A stretch of 64,000 bases of DNA, from contig CAMDUE010000009.1 in assembly GCA_945877575.1 (NCBI GenBank), positions 7,173 through 71,172 of the forward strand, read 5' to 3'. The DNA comes from Chitinophaga pinensis. GTDB taxonomy: Bacteria; Bacteroidota; Bacteroidia; NS11-12g; UBA955. The notes beneath the pieces were generated by a model. That model saw nothing but the letters and a program-made list of their open reading frames with translations, made no database searches and was not told the DNA's origin. The position numbers were made by a program, and so were the translations under genes. This document shows, in pieces, positions 8,996 through 52,433 of this stretch. How positions within the stretch are numbered: the first letter of the stretch is position 1; each line of letters starts with the position of its first letter.

Positions 8996-9043
8996 CGGGT
9001 TTTGGGTTACGGGGATCGGGTTTCGGGTGACAGGGATCGGGGG
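8996..9043. repeat. G-rich spacer with at least 7 G3-5 tracts (GGG TTTT GGG TTAC GGGG ATC GGG TTTC GGG TGACA GGG ATC GGGGG) between the convergent crtB and radA stops; G-quadruplex motif and an imperfect direct repeat AC(R)GGGATCGGG
   Basis: Read directly from the sequence. It exactly fills the gap between the two stop codons. Confidence 0.7.
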
Positions 9044-40667: not shown

Positions 40668-40833
40668 TTGGTACCGAGTACCGGGTAGCTGGTAATTGGT
40701 AGAGGGTAGAGGGTAGAGGGTAGAGGGTAGAGGGTAGAGGGTAGAGGGTTGCAGGAACTGCAGACCACGGACTATGGACCAACTACCATGTACCATGTAC
40801 TATCTACCAAAGTCTACCAAAGTCTACCAAAGT
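40668..40833. repeat. Composite tandem-repeat array between the convergent dnaN and yggS stops: GGTAC-rich leader, (GGTAGAG)x7 at 40698-40746, degenerate RGACYAY-type heptamers (…CAGACCACGGACTATGGACC…), then (CTACCAAAGT)x3 at 40804-40833
   Basis: Counted directly in the sequence. The array abuts both stop codons. The GGG-TAGA-GGG periodicity is a G-quadruplex motif. Confidence 0.9.
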
Positions 40834-41499
40834 CTAAACGAAAACCGCCGTGCCCACTCTTACGAACGTAGATCCGTGTTCGATGGCTATGTGGTAATCA
40901 CTGCTCATACCAATTGATAGTTCACAGAAAGCGGGTGAGTCATTGAAGATGTTTTCCTTGGCGTCAATGAATAATTTCTGTATCAATGAGAATTCATTGG
41001 AGATTTGAACGGTGTCATCGGTGAGTGAAGCCATGCCCATCAGTCCGCAGATTTGAATGTTCAACAATGAGGCTTTTTCGGCGTTGAATTCAGACCAAAA
41101 TTGGGGCAAATGTGCGGGAGGAATTCCAAATTTGCTATCTTCCTGGGCGACATGAAGTTGAATTAATACGTTGATGATTCTATTGTTTGCCGCAGCTTGT
41201 TTGTTGATTTCTTTAAGTAGTTTTATTGAATCTACGGAGTGAATCATTTCAATGAACGGCGCAATATATTTGACTTTGTTGGTTTGAAGGTGGCCTATTA
41301 AATGCCATTCAATGTCAGTAGGAAGTTGCTCTCTGCGCTCAAGGAGTGCTTGGACTCTGTTCTCTGCGAAAATTCTTTGTCCGGAGTTGTAGGCTTCCTG
41401 GATTTCTTGGATTTCACGGTACTTGGAGACGACAATGAGCTGTGTGCTTTTAGGCAATTGTTTCTTGATTTGATCGATGTTTTCTGCTATGCGACTCAT
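40834..41499 (-). CDS. yggS: YggS-family pyridoxal-phosphate homeostasis protein
   Basis: LIVVSKYREIQ…FAENRVQ…WHLIGHLQTNK signature. Confidence 0.85.
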   Translation of the reverse strand: MSRIAENIDQIKKQLPKSTQLIVVSKYREIQEIQEAYNSGQRIFAENRVQALLERREQLPTDIEWHLIGHLQTNKVKYIAPFIEMIHSVDSIKLLKEINKQAAANNRIINVLIQLHVAQEDSKFGIPPAHLPQFWSEFNAEKASLLNIQICGLMGMASLTDDTVQISNEFSLIQKLFIDAKENIFNDSPAFCELSIGMSSDYHIAIEHGSTFVRVGTAVFV

Positions 41500-45874: not shown

Positions 45875-46990
45875 ATGTTGAAGAAGGGGCTTCTTGCTGT
45901 TGTTTTGATCTTGGGATTGGGTCGTGAGCTCAATTTGAAGGCGCAGCAAAATAAGGGCCTTACTACCGAACAGATTATTCAATCTCGGTATCATCCTTTC
46001 TCTGATTCTACGAGGAGTAAAATTGAGAATTTCTTTGATTTCCATCAGCGAATTGGTAATTTCAACGGTACCTATTTGATGTTTTCTAATGACAGCATTA
46101 TTTATGGTTCGAGGGGCTATGCCATTTACGGTAATTTAGATTCTGTAGAACCTGGTGATTTATTTCAATTGGCATCAGTTTCAAAAATATTTACGGCCAT
46201 GAGCGTCATGATGCTAAATCAAGACGGTTACTTGAATATTGACGATTCTGTGCATTGGTACATTCCTGAACTAGAAAACAAAGGGGTTACTATTCGACAA
46301 TTATTGAGTCACACCAGTGGGTTGCCTGACTATTTTTATGCTGATTATCCCAAAGGGTTTTTCCCCGAGGGACAAACACACATGACGAACGAGCAGGTAG
46401 TGGAAGTCATCAATTTGCAAGGTAAACGCAAGTATACCAAACAGGGTTTTTATCATTACTGCAATACCAATTATGCTTTTTTGAGTCTCATTGTTGAACG
46501 ACTTTCTAATAAAGATTTTCGCACTTTTGTTAGGGATCATATCTGTAAAAGCGCAGAAATGAAATATTCGCACATTGCTAATTTTGATTCATTGCCACTG
46601 GTGAATTATCCGGTTCAAGGATACAATAAGTGGAGCGTATTTGATGACAACATTTTCAACGGTACCACTGGCGATAAGGGCGTTTATTCAAACGTTTTCG
46701 AAATGTTTATGCTTGATCGGGCGTTGAAAGGCTCCTATATCCTTCACGAAGCCACCAAACAAGAAATGTGGACTCCCCAAACGGTTACAAGTTCTGATGG
46801 ATATTATTCTCTAGGCTGGAGAATCAAATACATTGATGGCAAAAAATGGGTCTTCCACAACGGCTGGTGGAAAGGATTCCGTACCTACTTCTGGCGTTGT
46901 TTGGATGAAGATAAAAGTTTTGTAGTCTTAACCAACAATGTTGACGGCCGATTTCTCAGTACCCTACAAATGGTTCATTTACTCGATTGA
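45875..46990 (+). CDS. Secreted serine hydrolase, beta-lactamase/PBP4*-like family
   Basis: Signal peptide and the S-x-x-K active-site motif (FQLASVSKIFTAM), plus a YxN-like HYCNTNYAF. Confidence 0.8.
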   Translation: MLKKGLLAVVLILGLGRELNLKAQQNKGLTTEQIIQSRYHPFSDSTRSKIENFFDFHQRIGNFNGTYLMFSNDSIIYGSRGYAIYGNLDSVEPGDLFQLASVSKIFTAMSVMMLNQDGYLNIDDSVHWYIPELENKGVTIRQLLSHTSGLPDYFYADYPKGFFPEGQTHMTNEQVVEVINLQGKRKYTKQGFYHYCNTNYAFLSLIVERLSNKDFRTFVRDHICKSAEMKYSHIANFDSLPLVNYPVQGYNKWSVFDDNIFNGTTGDKGVYSNVFEMFMLDRALKGSYILHEATKQEMWTPQTVTSSDGYYSLGWRIKYIDGKKWVFHNGWWKGFRTYFWRCLDEDKSFVVLTNNVDGRFLSTLQMVHLLD

Positions 46991-47923
46991 GATTCGCTGA
47001 AAAGTTCGCTGAGTTCTAACAATGTAAATCCCTACAGGTAAATGGCTTAAGTCTAATATTTGACCTTGGTTCATCCTGCTTATTTCCATAATCACGGTTC
47101 CATTGGAAGCAATAATTTGAAGATTTTCGAGATTTCGAAACCCTGTGAGCTCCTTGTTTTGCGGGTTGTAAAAGACTATTTTTTCTGTTTCGGGGGATGT
47201 TAACCCGTTGAAGATTCCTTGATTGATCACTCCTACAGCATCGAGATCAAATCCTGAGCTGGCAAAATTCGTTGGCCACGGATCATTGATAATATTTCCT
47301 TTGGAATCTCTGCTGCCCAAAGCAGGGTTTATTGATCCAATGACGTCAATGATTCGTAGGAAGTAAAATTGATTTGGTAAGTTAGCCGCTGTTATTTCAT
47401 CAATATCAAACGGCGTTCCGTAAGGCATTCTATATTTACCCGCTAAATTGTGAATTTGCTCGGAAAAGGTAGGCCCAAAAGGGGCAGTTTGACTGTCGGT
47501 TTGAGTTTGGCTTTCAGACGGAAACCTATAAAAATCAATACCATTTTCGCTGATTTCGACATGGGCTAATTCCAGAAAGGAATCGTTAAACGCATTTTCA
47601 AAAACAGCAAAGTCAAATCCAGTACCGTTTATGATGGGGGGATTGAAAAACAGGGTTATAGACCCACCATCTCCCAGGCTAATCACTCCATTTTTTCTGG
47701 ATTTTCCTGTGGCCGAATTTTCATTTCCTATTGTTGTCTTTCCAGAATCAGGCACATTGATTTGCCTCAATGCAACATTCGTTTGAGAAGAAATTGCCCA
47801 GCCAACAAAGCAAGAACTATCACCGTGAATGGCGGTGCTCCCGGGTTTCCCTGCCGCAGGAGGGAAATTGCCTTGTGACCACAAACTCCGGCTAGTGAGT
47901 AGCAACAACAATATGAATGTTTT
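46979..47923 (-). CDS. T9SS-sorted secreted protein; the start codon cannot be fixed
   Basis: C-terminal type A sorting domain (…ASNGTVIMEISRMNQGQILDLSHLPVGIYIVRTQ…). A signal-peptide-like KTFILLLLLTSRSLWSQ is present, but no in-frame ATG lies next to it; ATA at 47914 and TTG at 47911 are the candidates. The ORF-track N-terminal 48 aa translate repeat locus B. Confidence 0.5.
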   Translation of the reverse strand, partial: KTFILLLLLTSRSLWSQGNFPPAAGKPGSTAIHGDSSCFVGWAISSQTNVALRQINVPDSGKTTIGNENSATGKSRKNGVISLGDGGSITLFFNPPIINGTGFDFAVFENAFNDSFLELAHVEISENGIDFYRFPSESQTQTDSQTAPFGPTFSEQIHNLAGKYRMPYGTPFDIDEITAANLPNQFYFLRIIDVIGSINPALGSRDSKGNIINDPWPTNFASSGFDLDAVGVINQGIFNGLTSPETEKIVFYNPQNKELTGFRNLENLQIIASNGTVIMEISRMNQGQILDLSHLPVGIYIVRTQRTFQRISIE

Positions 47924-47925
47924 AT

Positions 47926-48013
47926 GGTACTTGGTCTTTGGTACTAGGTACAGGGTACTTGGCGGTAGCCGGTACCCTCTACCCGCTACCCGGTACCAAG
48001 TACCTCTATCTAA
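47926..48013. repeat. Heptamer-periodic repeat (locus B): (GGTACTT/GGTCTTT/GGTACTA/GGTACAG/GGTACTT) followed by GCCGGTA CCCTCTA CCCGCTA CCCGGTA…, the reverse complement of the GGTAG(A/C)G family
   Basis: Seen in the sequence. It lies between the ftcD stop and the 5' end of the T9SS gene and overlaps the ftcD stop codon. Confidence 0.8.
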
Positions 48014-49691
48014 GCTCCGCTTCAATTTTATTAGCAATTTCATCGCATTCACGGTGATTTTTTGCAAGTAAATCTTCAGCTTGTTTTACAATGTTTTCAG
48101 CAAACGTGCGATCAGATAGTCCTTTGGCGTTAGTCAATACATTGAAAAAAGCACCTCTTACAGCGGTTTTGATGCAAATGACGCCAACAGCTACATCGCT
48201 CATGCTGTTGGGATTGCCAATTTCAGACATTTCTTTGAGTAACGGTAGACAGTTATAAGCGGCTTCCATGGTTCTAAATGGAATCATGGTGGCGTATTGA
48301 CTGGCTTTTTCTACGGCCTCTTTGCGCGCTGTTTTTTGTTCATCGGTGTCTTTTGGAAGTTGAAATGCGGCCATGATTCCGTCAAATGCACGAGTATCTT
48401 CATCAACAAGATGCAGCAGTTGGTCTTTGAGTTTTTGTCCTTTTTCTGCCCAGGGCGAGAAATCATTTACGCTATCTTCCCAACCTCTTTTGATGGCGCT
48501 TCCGTTTGCTACCATGGTTCCTAGTGCGGCACCGAGGGCACCAGAAAGCGCCGCTATACTTCCTCCGCCAGGAGCAACAGAATCGCTGGCCGTTTCATTA
48601 GTGAAGGCCTTTACGCTCATGGAAACAAGGCGTTCTTGGGCCAAATCTTTCAAGAGATATTCAATGATTCTGGTTTTGGGGTCAAATTGGCTCAATTCAT
48701 TTAATCCCATACTTTTGATGGCCATATCCACCAAGGTTTGCTCGTCAACACCGCTGCTCATGCCTTGTTTTTCTAGGAAATATTTGCCTGCATCGAGTAT
48801 GGGTTGCAAAGGTACAAGTCCAACCAATTCGCTGCCTGTTACTCTAACGCCGCGTTCGTCAGCTGATTTGCATGTTTCTTCAAAAACAACGTGAAGGGGA
48901 GTTTCTCTGAAATTGGTGAGATTGATGCTGATTTGAGCAATGCCGTACTCTTCAATATACCAACCAATGGCTTTGACGTATTTTAGCTTTCCGGGGATGC
49001 GGACATCCTCGCCGTTTTGGTCTTTGACGATTTTTCCAACGAAGGGATTTCCTTCTCGGAGGACTCTTCCAGCTTCGCGGATGTCAAAGGCTATTCGGTT
49101 GGCTATGCGAGTGCTTTTGCTGTTGAGGTTTACGTTGTATGCAATTAAAAAGTCTCTAGCGCCTATGACCGTTGCGCCTGCTTTGGCATTCATTTTTGAT
49201 GGACCAAAATCAGGTTTCCATTGCGGTTCTTGAATTTTATCGAAAAATCCTTCGTATTCACCTGAACGAATCACACTAAGGTTGGAACGTGTTTTATTGG
49301 TTTGAGCCTCTTCATATAAATATACCGGAATTTGAAGATTATTGCCGACTCTTTCAGCGAGTTTTTTGGCATATTCAGCGGTTTCTTCCATGCTGATGCC
49401 TGAAATGGGTATCAAAGGACAGACATCGGTGGCACCCATTCTAGGATGTTCGCCGCTGTGTTGCGACATATCAATAACTTGGGATGCGCATTCAATTCCA
49501 CGGTAAGCGGCTTCTATCACAGCATCGGGTTCACCAACGAAGGTAACTACCGTTCGGTTGGTGGCTTTTCCTGGATCTACGTTTAATAATTTTATCCCTT
49601 CAACTGATTCAATAGCATCAGTAATTTGCTTGATAATCTGAGGGTTTCTGCCTTCACTAAAATTAGGAACGCACTCAATATTTTTTTGCAT
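48006..49691 (-). CDS. ftcD: Bifunctional glutamate formimidoyltransferase / formimidoyltetrahydrofolate cyclodeaminase
   Basis: N-terminal MQKNIECVPNFSEGRN is the classic formiminotransferase start; a C-terminal cyclodeaminase domain follows. The real ATG is at 49691. Confidence 0.85.
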   Translation of the reverse strand: MQKNIECVPNFSEGRNPQIIKQITDAIESVEGIKLLNVDPGKATNRTVVTFVGEPDAVIEAAYRGIECASQVIDMSQHSGEHPRMGATDVCPLIPISGISMEETAEYAKKLAERVGNNLQIPVYLYEEAQTNKTRSNLSVIRSGEYEGFFDKIQEPQWKPDFGPSKMNAKAGATVIGARDFLIAYNVNLNSKSTRIANRIAFDIREAGRVLREGNPFVGKIVKDQNGEDVRIPGKLKYVKAIGWYIEEYGIAQISINLTNFRETPLHVVFEETCKSADERGVRVTGSELVGLVPLQPILDAGKYFLEKQGMSSGVDEQTLVDMAIKSMGLNELSQFDPKTRIIEYLLKDLAQERLVSMSVKAFTNETASDSVAPGGGSIAALSGALGAALGTMVANGSAIKRGWEDSVNDFSPWAEKGQKLKDQLLHLVDEDTRAFDGIMAAFQLPKDTDEQKTARKEAVEKASQYATMIPFRTMEAAYNCLPLLKEMSEIGNPNSMSDVAVGVICIKTAVRGAFFNVLTNAKGLSDRTFAENIVKQAEDLLAKNHRECDEIANKIEAELR

Positions 49692-52226: not shown

Positions 52227-52433
52227 TACCAGGTGCCTGGTACTTGGAAGCTGGTAGGGGGTAGGGGGTAGGGGGTAGGGGGTGACCACAGACTACGGAC
52301 TATGGACTATGGACCACGGACCACGGACCACGGACCACGGACTATGGACTATGGACCACAGACCACAGACCACAGACCACAGACCACAGACTACAGACCA
52401 CGGACTACAGACCATGGACCACAGACCAATATC
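52227..52433. repeat. Heptamer tandem array (locus C) filling the gap between the convergent ychF and E1 stops: GGTAC leader, (GGTAGGG)x4 at 52253-52280, then about 21 consecutive heptamers A[CT][AG]GAC[CT] (GGACCAC / GGACTAT / AGACCAC variants)
   Basis: Counted directly. The strict 7-bp register holds over about 180 bp. GGGGG-TA-GGGGG x4 is a canonical G4 motif. Confidence 0.9.

Follow-up and report, generated by a model that had tools for sequence, protein, structure and literature searches.

The 64,000-nucleotide (nt) stretch of contig CAMDUE010000009.1 analysed here (hereafter the window) comes from an uncultured Bacteroidia and carries, on its minus strand, an array of degenerate 7-nt repeats between ftcD and the gene for a cargo protein of the type IX secretion system (T9SS). 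This array, locus B, is one of four heptamer loci in the window (A, B, C and D; Table 1). On balance, we slightly favour the view that locus B is a copy of a lineage-specific heptamer family, a stabilised remnant whose edge took the ATG of the T9SS gene, and that this gene is now started upstream; the array would not be a switch. The initial annotation had proposed a phase-variation (contingency) locus. Parts of that proposal hold, as the family is prone to slippage and the locus varies in length between alleles. A switch is not supported, since the window tract is degenerate and of constant length, membership of the family is not linked to surface-protein genes, and the array is non-coding in relatives. 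Judging from the alleles compared, locus B is a stable, degenerate member of an STRR-like heptamer family and not a demonstrated contingency switch.

The course of events that we propose is as follows. A member of a group of lineage-specific intergenic heptanucleotide arrays, each with a G-rich arm (GGGnnnn/GGTAnnn) followed by a C-rich arm and able to fold as a hairpin, arose, as comparison with relatives shows, within what in other Bacteroidota is a 2-35 nt spacer between ftcD and the T9SS gene. Like the other arrays, which on the same comparison evolve by gain and loss of 7-nt units with rapid turnover of the unit sequence, it changed by whole units. Repeat-mediated misalignment between the array core and the start region would then have removed the C-rich CCCGAAA arm together with the ATG. 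From that point the cargo gene would probably be made from ATG 48043 in the 3' end of ftcD, with the array read as codons of a basic extension, about 41 residues long, in front of the former signal peptide, and with the rest of the extension supplied by the ftcD tail in the other frame. A degenerate array that does not slip would be expected of a sequence turned coding.

Sequence and fold of the locus B array

Read on the sense strand from 48004 to 47926, the array is GGTACTT GGTACCG GGTAGCG GGTAGAG GGTACCG GCTACCG CCAAGTA CCCTGTA CCTAGTA CCAAAGA CCAAGTA CC, and it begins one base past the stop codon of ftcD. The degenerate 7-bp register noticed initially is real: self-identity at a lag of 7 nt is 0.71, against 0.14-0.33 at other lags, a value reached in 0 of 10,000 shuffles. 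The pattern GGTAN3GGTA occurs 21 times in the window, compared with 0.67 expected occurrences, and 7 of the 21 fall in locus B. TRF recognises only 4.1 copies with 81% match. A unit-by-unit comparison finds no identical adjacent units in the tract, which is therefore a poor substrate for slippage. Note that the repeat, previously drawn as far as 48013, ends at 48004; positions 48006-48013 hold the ftcD stop codon and coding sequence.

The tract had also been called inverted, which is true of one half only. As a whole, locus B is a two-armed quasi-palindrome, in which six G-rich units are followed by five that are approximately their complement, with 33-nt arms that are 76% complementary. In particular, the final 10 nt of the 3' arm (ACCAAGTACC) pair perfectly with the opening 10 nt of the 5' arm. 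The predicted fold of the locus is one hairpin with a free energy (dG) of -52.7 kcal/mol and a z-score of -5.25, or -8.2 for the array alone. Across the arrays, the hairpins predicted in silico have dG values of -50 to -125 kcal/mol and z-scores down to -8, and for most alleles and loci the z-score lies between -2.4 and -6.1.

A scan for intrinsic terminators finds none at the array: the stem is followed by AUAAAACAUUC, and there is no U tract. A sigma-70 promoter scan likewise returns nothing at the array, the Bacteroidetes -7 box (TAnnTTTG or TAnnTTT) is absent from the minus strand at 47850-48400, and a search of 47700-48200 with the Rfam 15 covariance models gives 0 matches at E<=1. No promoter-like box is found near the array or the gene, and the spacer was very short ancestrally; transcription of the T9SS gene together with ftcD is therefore most likely, in which case the mRNA would include the array. 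A G-quadruplex reading of locus B was rejected, since the locus has just three G3 runs and falls short of the canonical motif.

Loss of the ATG and probable translation of the cargo gene

Homologues of the cargo protein (16 aligned) open with M-x-x-K, a hydrophobic core of 8-10 residues and a conserved Gln. The closest proteins are 89-99% identical (P0001, 97%; P0002, 96%; L006, 89%; P0122, differing at only 3 codons) and start with MHHK(I/T)FILLLLLTSRSLWSQ or MYHK..., whereas the window has ...K-Y-H-K-T-F-ILLLLLTSRSLWSQ, so that MHHK or MYHK in relatives is aligned with KYHK. Just 3' of the array, the window reads CAT AAA ACA TTC ATA TTG TTG TTG CTA CTC ACT AGC CGG AGT TTG TGG TCA, followed by CAA. 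As first reported, no ATG flanks the signal peptide in the window allele, and the ATA (47914-47912) and TTG (47911-47909) codons lie where they had been placed.

The same order of ftcD and T9SS gene is present in the DNA of L001, L002, L096/L097, L006 and L086-L088. In these ATG-containing alleles, a much longer array past the ftcD stop is followed by a leader, (A/C)AAAGACTAA(A/T), and then by ATG-(C/T)AC-CAT-AAA; the arrays of close strains end 13 nt before this ordinary ATG. In the window allele, the A and T of this codon have been lost, and AAG (47932-47930) occupies the position of the relatives' ATG. The suspicion that the repeat displaced the start codon is thus borne out, as array-like sequence in the window stands in place of the leader and ATG of close relatives. 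The closest ATG-containing allele is L096 (synonymous divergence, dS, 0.054), in which the sequence downstream is identical to that of the window.

The stop-to-ATG spacers of five ATG-containing alleles are 154, 196, 203, 210 and 252 nt long, each an exact multiple of 7, and the arrays therefore appear to change by whole units. These alleles hold runs of 3-5 identical adjacent units, and in all of them the array is non-coding throughout. Distant homologues (about 50-55% identical) have ftcD directly upstream, a spacer of 2-35 nt, an ordinary ATG and no 7-nt periodicity. Since they keep this tiny, repeat-free spacer, the array is, on the alleles compared, a clade-specific invasion of a short and probably intercistronic spacer.

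The ATG has been lost from the window allele, by what appears to be a rearrangement at the boundary between array and leader. Within the array core of the ATG alleles is AAGCACCAT (...GCCAAGTACCAAGCACCATTGACC...), and their start region contains ATG(C/T)ACCAT; these near-identical 9-mers are about 130-190 nt apart and able to mispair. By one route, a slipped deletion between the 9-mers would join AAG to TACCAT, and the CCCGAAA arm, the leader and the ATG would go in one step. By another, the leader GACTAA(A/T)ATG(C/T)ACC would have been converted to GACCAAGTACC by a templated change of the quasipalindrome type (cf. PMC7202029). The sequence GACCAAGTACC duplicates CCAAGTACC, which lies 35 nt upstream, and is also exactly complementary to the opening 10 nt of the array; with either route, the junction prolongs the 7-nt register and closes the hairpin with a perfect 10-bp stem. 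The match of a clustered change to a direct copy and to an inverted copy (GGTACTTGG, at the 5' end of the array) resembles the products of slipped misalignment and quasipalindrome template switching (PMC7202029), although for locus B the mechanism is deduced from the products only. Loss of the G of the ATG by a single-base deletion was considered and rejected after reading the DNA of the relatives.

Assembly error was also rejected as the cause of the missing ATG. Arrays of this family do break assemblies, as runs of N over the array in L006, L007 and L099 demonstrate, and an artefact of repeat mis-assembly could in principle have produced either the array or the loss of the ATG. However, the same 79-nt array and junction recur in independent ENA, Logan, JGI and NCBI-derived assemblies of different samples, and single reads are longer than the tract, in which no two neighbouring units are identical, so that this explanation can practically be disregarded.

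The initial annotation placed the only in-frame Met of the gene inside the repeat. The only in-frame upstream ATG is instead located at 48043-48041, inside ftcD, and the T9SS frame is the sole one of the three frames that is open through the array. Taken on its own, translation from this ATG is a proposal that we hold with slightly less than even confidence. The ATG stems from a synonymous choice in ftcD (Asp GAT-GAA, in the 48041-48046 region). The codon is GAT in all ATG-less alleles and GAC, which gives no ATG, in four of the eight ATG-containing alleles (L001, L096, L003 and L008); this split follows linked haplotypes and is not an independent test of the use of the upstream ATG.

An alternative is initiation at ATA 47914 or TTG 47911, in an A/T-rich unstructured stretch 3' of the hairpin. 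The upstream context, CCATAAAACATTCATA, is A/T-rich like the leaders of relatives, the hairpin ends at 47926 and is predicted to leave the stretch single-stranded, and the JGI gene caller chose the TTG in L100. Gene callers are unreliable here, however, as JGI took an internal TTG in L098 despite an ATG. Moreover, a start at either codon leaves about 5-6 hydrophobic residues of the signal peptide (M-L-L-L-L-(L)-T-S-R) and no charged n-region, compared with MxxK and 8-10 residues in homologues, and such a product would probably be too short for Sec export. We give this alternative very little credence.

ATG-less alleles are common, with about 18 contigs compared with about 13 that have the ATG; eight of the ATG-less contigs encode the 354-residue form and eight the 359-residue form, and the rest are variants. 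The 948-nt cargo open reading frame (ORF) is intact in all alleles, and no frameshift or stop was seen in any ATG-less copy. The ratio of non-synonymous to synonymous divergence (omega) of the window allele is 0.09 against L001 (dS 0.135) and 0.08 against L096 (dS 0.054); in comparison with L093, the other ATG-less allele (dS 0.30), it is 0.15. Codon changes number 10 synonymous and 6 non-synonymous on the window branch, and 8 and 2 on the L001 branch. A pseudogene was rejected, as neither the ORF nor omega nor the branch counts carry its signature; there is only a hint of relaxation.

The 359-residue allele (L093/L094) has the same 3' arm and junction as the window. Its 5' arm contains two extra heptamers (+14 nt) and a change of GGCTACC to GGATTACC (+1 nt), and because the 14 nt come together with the 1 nt, the frame from the same ftcD-internal ATG stays open. 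As a side observation, the signal-peptide codons of L093 at 2640-2680 (IFLLLLTTQNLWSQ) match the distant L003 type (590-625) and its array junction matches the window exactly; the recombination breakpoint in L093 lies within codons 5-6 of the gene (compare window 47880-47915).

These data bear on the possibility that the rearrangement destroyed the start and silenced the T9SS gene, in which case the ORF would be intact because the event or its import is recent, and the open upstream frame would be a coincidence. The canonical ATG and the A-rich leader are indeed gone, the share of non-synonymous changes is somewhat higher on the window branch than on the L001 branch, the junction module was apparently exchanged recently, and a frame would be open by chance with a probability of roughly 0.3. 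Against this, two diverged backgrounds carry ATG-less alleles, which are frequent and have no frameshift or stop in any copy, omega between the two ATG-less alleles is 0.15, and the 14-nt expansion is paired with the frame-keeping 1 nt. We consider silencing unlikely, though it deserves to be kept in mind.

Several points weigh against the reading that we favour, in which the edge of the array took the ATG and the gene is started upstream. The two routes of rearrangement both fit and cannot be told apart. Hairpin potential is weak in L003 (z -1.2), in L096 (z -1.8) and on the plus strand of locus C (z +0.4). The conservation of the frame is no more than suggestive, as it concerns two length classes only, protein-based retrieval favours open frames, and the chance of such conservation is about 0.1-0.3. 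At the junction, the window and L093 share 56 identical nt, although their flanks are 6.4% divergent and their signal-peptide codons become very different immediately 3' of it, and the ATG-less module has probably been moved recently by recombination; the case for long purifying selection without an ATG is therefore weaker. The sequence around the upstream ATG is rich in G/C, and this ATG is itself within a translated gene. Finally, the reading presumes transcription together with ftcD, the proposed start site and the export of a protein whose leader would comprise 57 residues.

The heptamer family and its mutability

Members of the family lie mainly at junctions without a gene start. Among 85 loci scanned with TRF, period-7 arrays are abundant only in the window and in L001-L008; a few are found in unrelated metagenome-assembled genomes (MAGs), and most of the 80 Bacteroidota loci have none. 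Three array sites are syntenic in the clade: after ychF, between ftcD and the T9SS gene, and between alr and dnaN. These sites hold their synteny across species down to 71% protein identity, while the unit sequences are wholly replaced. For example, the units are of the types GGGTACC/CCCGAAA/CTACCAA in L001, L002 and L006, GGGTTTC/CTAGTCT in L003, and TTTGGTC/GAGAGCC/GCTGACC/CCGATCA in L007 and L008. Orthologous loci of different species have unrelated units, and loci of one genome have unit types in common (AAAGACC at B and C in L007 and L008; AAACCCG at B and C in L001). The dispersed arrays of one genome thus look like a case of concerted evolution.

The pace of change can be seen in L004, which over 17.7 kb differs from the window by 0 substitutions and exactly two indels of 14 nt each. 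One is a gain of two GGACCAC units at locus C (window 52284-52428), the other a loss of two GGTAGAG units at locus A (40698-40749); locus B is identical. In these sequences, the pure heptamer tracts at A and C mutate much faster than point substitution occurs. Short-read assemblers can miscount repeats, but the tracts in question are shorter than a read. The length of locus B is the same in at least seven independent assemblies, drawn from the separate sources given above, with L004, L005/L089, L090, L091, L092 and L100 identical at every base and L095 differing by one substitution. Thus, as far as these assemblies reach, locus B of the window is stable, and the hypermutable tracts are the pure ones at convergent junctions. 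The length variability claimed for the tract holds between alleles, which differ in whole-heptamer steps (154-252 nt), and not within the window allele.

These observations are the main evidence on the contingency model, in which slippage by one unit in either direction would toggle the T9SS surface protein, through the frame of the ORF from 48043 or through a change in the leader. In its favour, a unit of 7 nt is not divisible by 3, the sole ATG-initiated ORF includes the array, which is situated between the ftcD stop and the T9SS gene, strains differ by whole units in arrays of the family, the gene encodes a secreted or surface protein, and a heptamer-repeat hairpin in the 5' untranslated region (UTR) governs the hmw1A adhesin of Haemophilus influenzae (PMC12721329). 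On the other hand, the window tract has no identical adjacent units, and its length is constant across independent assemblies while the pure tracts A and C vary in otherwise identical genomes. The sole length variant found differs by 15 nt, in frame, and not by 7, most members of the family sit at convergent junctions, and the array is non-coding in the ATG-containing alleles. Both findings that the initial annotation itself had named as counting against the model were in part obtained, namely an invariant length within the allele and the existence of homologues with an ordinary ATG and no repeat. We consider the model quite improbable.

The G-rich arms of loci D, A and C hold three of the four canonical G-quadruplex motifs in the window (G3N1-7 x4), against about 0.15 expected by shuffling. 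The two-armed layout, the starts at stop codons, the syntenic persistence with replacement of units and the unit types shared within a genome are the grounds for a broader reading, in which the arrays constitute a genome-wide functional system and are not just debris of slippage. A trans-acting process or factor would write or read genome-specific heptamers, for example as bidirectional insulators or terminators that act through a hairpin or G-quadruplex, and the locus B array would have been exapted to coding, as an overlapping N-terminal extension that couples the T9SS cargo to ftcD. This reading is rather improbable in our estimation.

The gene pair offers a natural experiment within a single uncultured freshwater Bacteroidia population, with a spacer that ranges from 2 nt to an array of 250 nt. 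In one frequent allele, the start codon was lost to the array and the gene itself stayed intact, which makes the locus a well-documented example of a start codon consumed by an array and shows how arrays can remodel gene starts. It also illustrates how arrays invade operon spacers and how fast pure tracts mutate relative to substitution (two 14-nt indels against 0 substitutions in 17.7 kb). If translation does begin at the upstream ATG, the array and the ftcD tail, read in the other frame, would have become part of a secretion leader, which would be an unusual route to an overlapping gene.

Related systems, flanking genes and annotation

Enterobacterial REP/BIME elements are imperfect intergenic palindromes with a consensus of about 35 nt that lie after stop codons, also between co-transcribed genes, and are thought to shape mRNA stability. 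Locus B is likewise an imperfect palindrome in an intergenic region after a stop codon. However, REPs are not tandem heptamers, and the arrays here have no conserved consensus, their units turning over between species. In Neisseria opa genes, perfect CTCTT repeats in the signal-peptide coding region switch at high frequency. If translation starts at 48043, locus B would similarly be a tract in the leader-coding region of a surface protein with a unit that is not a multiple of 3, but it is degenerate and shows no length variation within the allele.

Among analogues, H. influenzae hmw1A is the one characterised best: its (ATCTTTC)n repeat forms one arm of a long 5'-UTR hairpin that is cut by RNase III, and expression is inverse to the repeat number (PMC12721329). 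The arrays here resemble hmw1A/hmw2A (PMC12721329, PMC8262952) in having a 7-nt tandem repeat that directly precedes a secreted- or surface-protein gene, in that the repeats form one arm of a long hairpin whose second arm is compositionally complementary (here in silico), and in whole-unit copy differences between strains. In contrast, the hmw repeats are perfect, number at least 11 and change within populations, and hmw possesses a promoter of its own and an ordinary start codon, whereas the window tract is degenerate and of constant length, and the arrays here are also found at gene-end/gene-end junctions. RNase III processing and the inverse dose relation are features shown for hmw. In ATG-containing alleles, the most likely role of the array is that of an intercistronic or 5'-UTR hairpin through which expression of the downstream gene is modulated.

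The cyanobacterial STRR and Nostoc heptamers, or "long simple sequence repeats", are similar in occupying many intergenic loci per genome with several unit variants, in a lineage-specific distribution, and in that some arrays abut or overlap start codons (Mrazek 2007, cited in PMC4679880; bioRxiv 10.1101/2022.06.06.494920). They occur in another phylum and have other units, and the two-armed, G-rich-then-C-rich hairpin layout that starts 0-10 nt from a stop codon is a difference of the arrays here. Many intergenic sites per genome, restriction to a lineage and unit-number indels between strains, as expected of STRR-like repeats, are all found in the present family. It does not belong to the STRR in the strict sense, as the host is a Bacteroidia MAG and the units are GGTAGAG, GGGTACC, CCCGAAA, GACCACG and others, not STRR1-3.

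TAACTGA and mixed heptamer assemblages have been described in Beggiatoaceae, Cyanobacteria and five Bacteroidetes (MacGregor 2015, PMC4679880). Shared with these are intergenic heptamer arrays in Bacteroidetes, close relatives that have the same gene neighbourhood without arrays or with 7-nt indels, and contig breaks at arrays. The window, however, has no TAACTGA unit, and those arrays are direct and mostly just upstream of starts, whereas the arrays here have two inverted arms and mostly follow stops. We regard the novelty as moderate: a two-armed, stop-abutting, syntenically persistent variant of known intergenic heptamer arrays.

The position of the array between the ftcD stop and a secreted T9SS protein gene, given by the initial annotation, is confirmed by Pfam and TIGR matches including TIGR04183 (Table 1). 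The cargo protein belongs to a family of more than 7,000 homologues, about 315 residues long, with the invariant motifs GFDFAVFENAF..SFLELAHVE and DPWPT.F.SSGFDLD. In Pfam and NCBIfam, the cargo protein matches the T9SS sorting domain (type A, C-terminal) only, and a PDB sequence search with the mature protein gives a marginal match to this C-terminal domain and nothing more. The conserved Gln past the predicted cleavage site is encoded at 47875-47873, and this +1 Gln agrees with the "Q-rule" of Bacteroidetes. The gene pair is kept across distant Bacteroidota (L010, L013, L014, L017, L018 and L021-L023) with spacers of 2-35 nt. The arrangement suggests that ftcD and the cargo gene form an operon linking formiminoglutamate/folate metabolism to an uncharacterised secreted protein.

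Table 1. Features of the window discussed in the text, in window coordinates.
Feature	Position	Strand	Description
Whole heptamer array, locus B	47926..48004	-	79 nt, 11.3 units, one register; single long imperfect hairpin predicted (sense RNA or DNA)
5' (G-rich) arm	47963..48004	-	First six units; homologous to the GGGTACC/GGGTAGC arm of relatives
3' (C-rich) arm	47926..47962	-	Last five units and CC; also in the second ATG-less allele, L093/L094
Array/leader junction	47924..47938	-	Window AAAGACCAAG-TAC-CAT; relatives AAAGACTAA(A/T)ATG-(C/T)AC-CAT; DNA comparison and protein alignment
Only in-frame upstream ATG	48041..48043	-	37 nt before the repeat begins, 38 nt within the 3' end of ftcD, other frame; gene callers start the 354-residue product here
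Candidate non-ATG starts ATA (47914-47912), TTG (47911-47909)	47909..47914	-	From sequence; TTG used by the JGI gene caller in L100
Remaining signal-peptide codons	47876..47926	-	H K T F I L L L L L T S R S L W S; alignment of 16 homologues
T9SS cargo gene body, intact	46979..47926	-	315 codons and stop; TIGR04183/PF18962 C-terminal domain
ftcD (glutamate formimidoyltransferase/cyclodeaminase)	48009..49691	-	Stop TAG 48008-48006; Pfam FTCD_N, FTCD, FTCD_C (E 1e-60 to 1e-73); TIGR02024 (E 2e-115)
Locus A	40672..40836		Convergent junction; GGTAGAG x7.4, spacer, TACC-type units
Locus C	52227..52431		Convergent junction after ychF; GGTAGGG x4.4, then GACCACG/GACTATG x20.7
Locus D	8996..9041	+	Convergent junction; seven GGGnnnn units directly past a stop codon
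G-quadruplex motifs	8997-9020, 40704-40727, 52257-52282		Loci D, A and C, respectively

The arrays also affect annotation, in that one gene appears under many called lengths, driven by gene callers and by assembly gaps over the array. The cargo gene is called as 258, 301, 309, 310, 317, 354 or 359 residues. The JGI calls of 301 residues (LWSQ...) were considered as extra ATG-less alleles and rejected, since L098 has a normal ATG and the call is a choice of the gene caller. Similarly, the 258-residue products are not 5'-truncated alleles; they are due to scaffold gaps of N runs over the array (L099). Such runs sit exactly over the arrays at 2257-2357 in L099, about 9750-9850 in L006 and about 9620-9720 in L007.

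A metagenome scan with a 28-mer from the 5' end of the gene returned only three loci, all of the L006-like species. In L098, positions 100-440 hold an array of about 330 nt (GGTCGAT-type units, about 20 copies, then CCCGCTA/CCCGAAA) upstream of the same cargo gene; the flank upstream of it is unlike the 3' end of ftcD, and a rearrangement at the array is possible. Records that contain this Bacteroidia locus (among L006, L007, L014, L016 and L017) are titled "uncultured Rhizobium sp.", Chitinophaga pinensis or Chryseobacterium gleum, apparently through mislabelled taxonomy.

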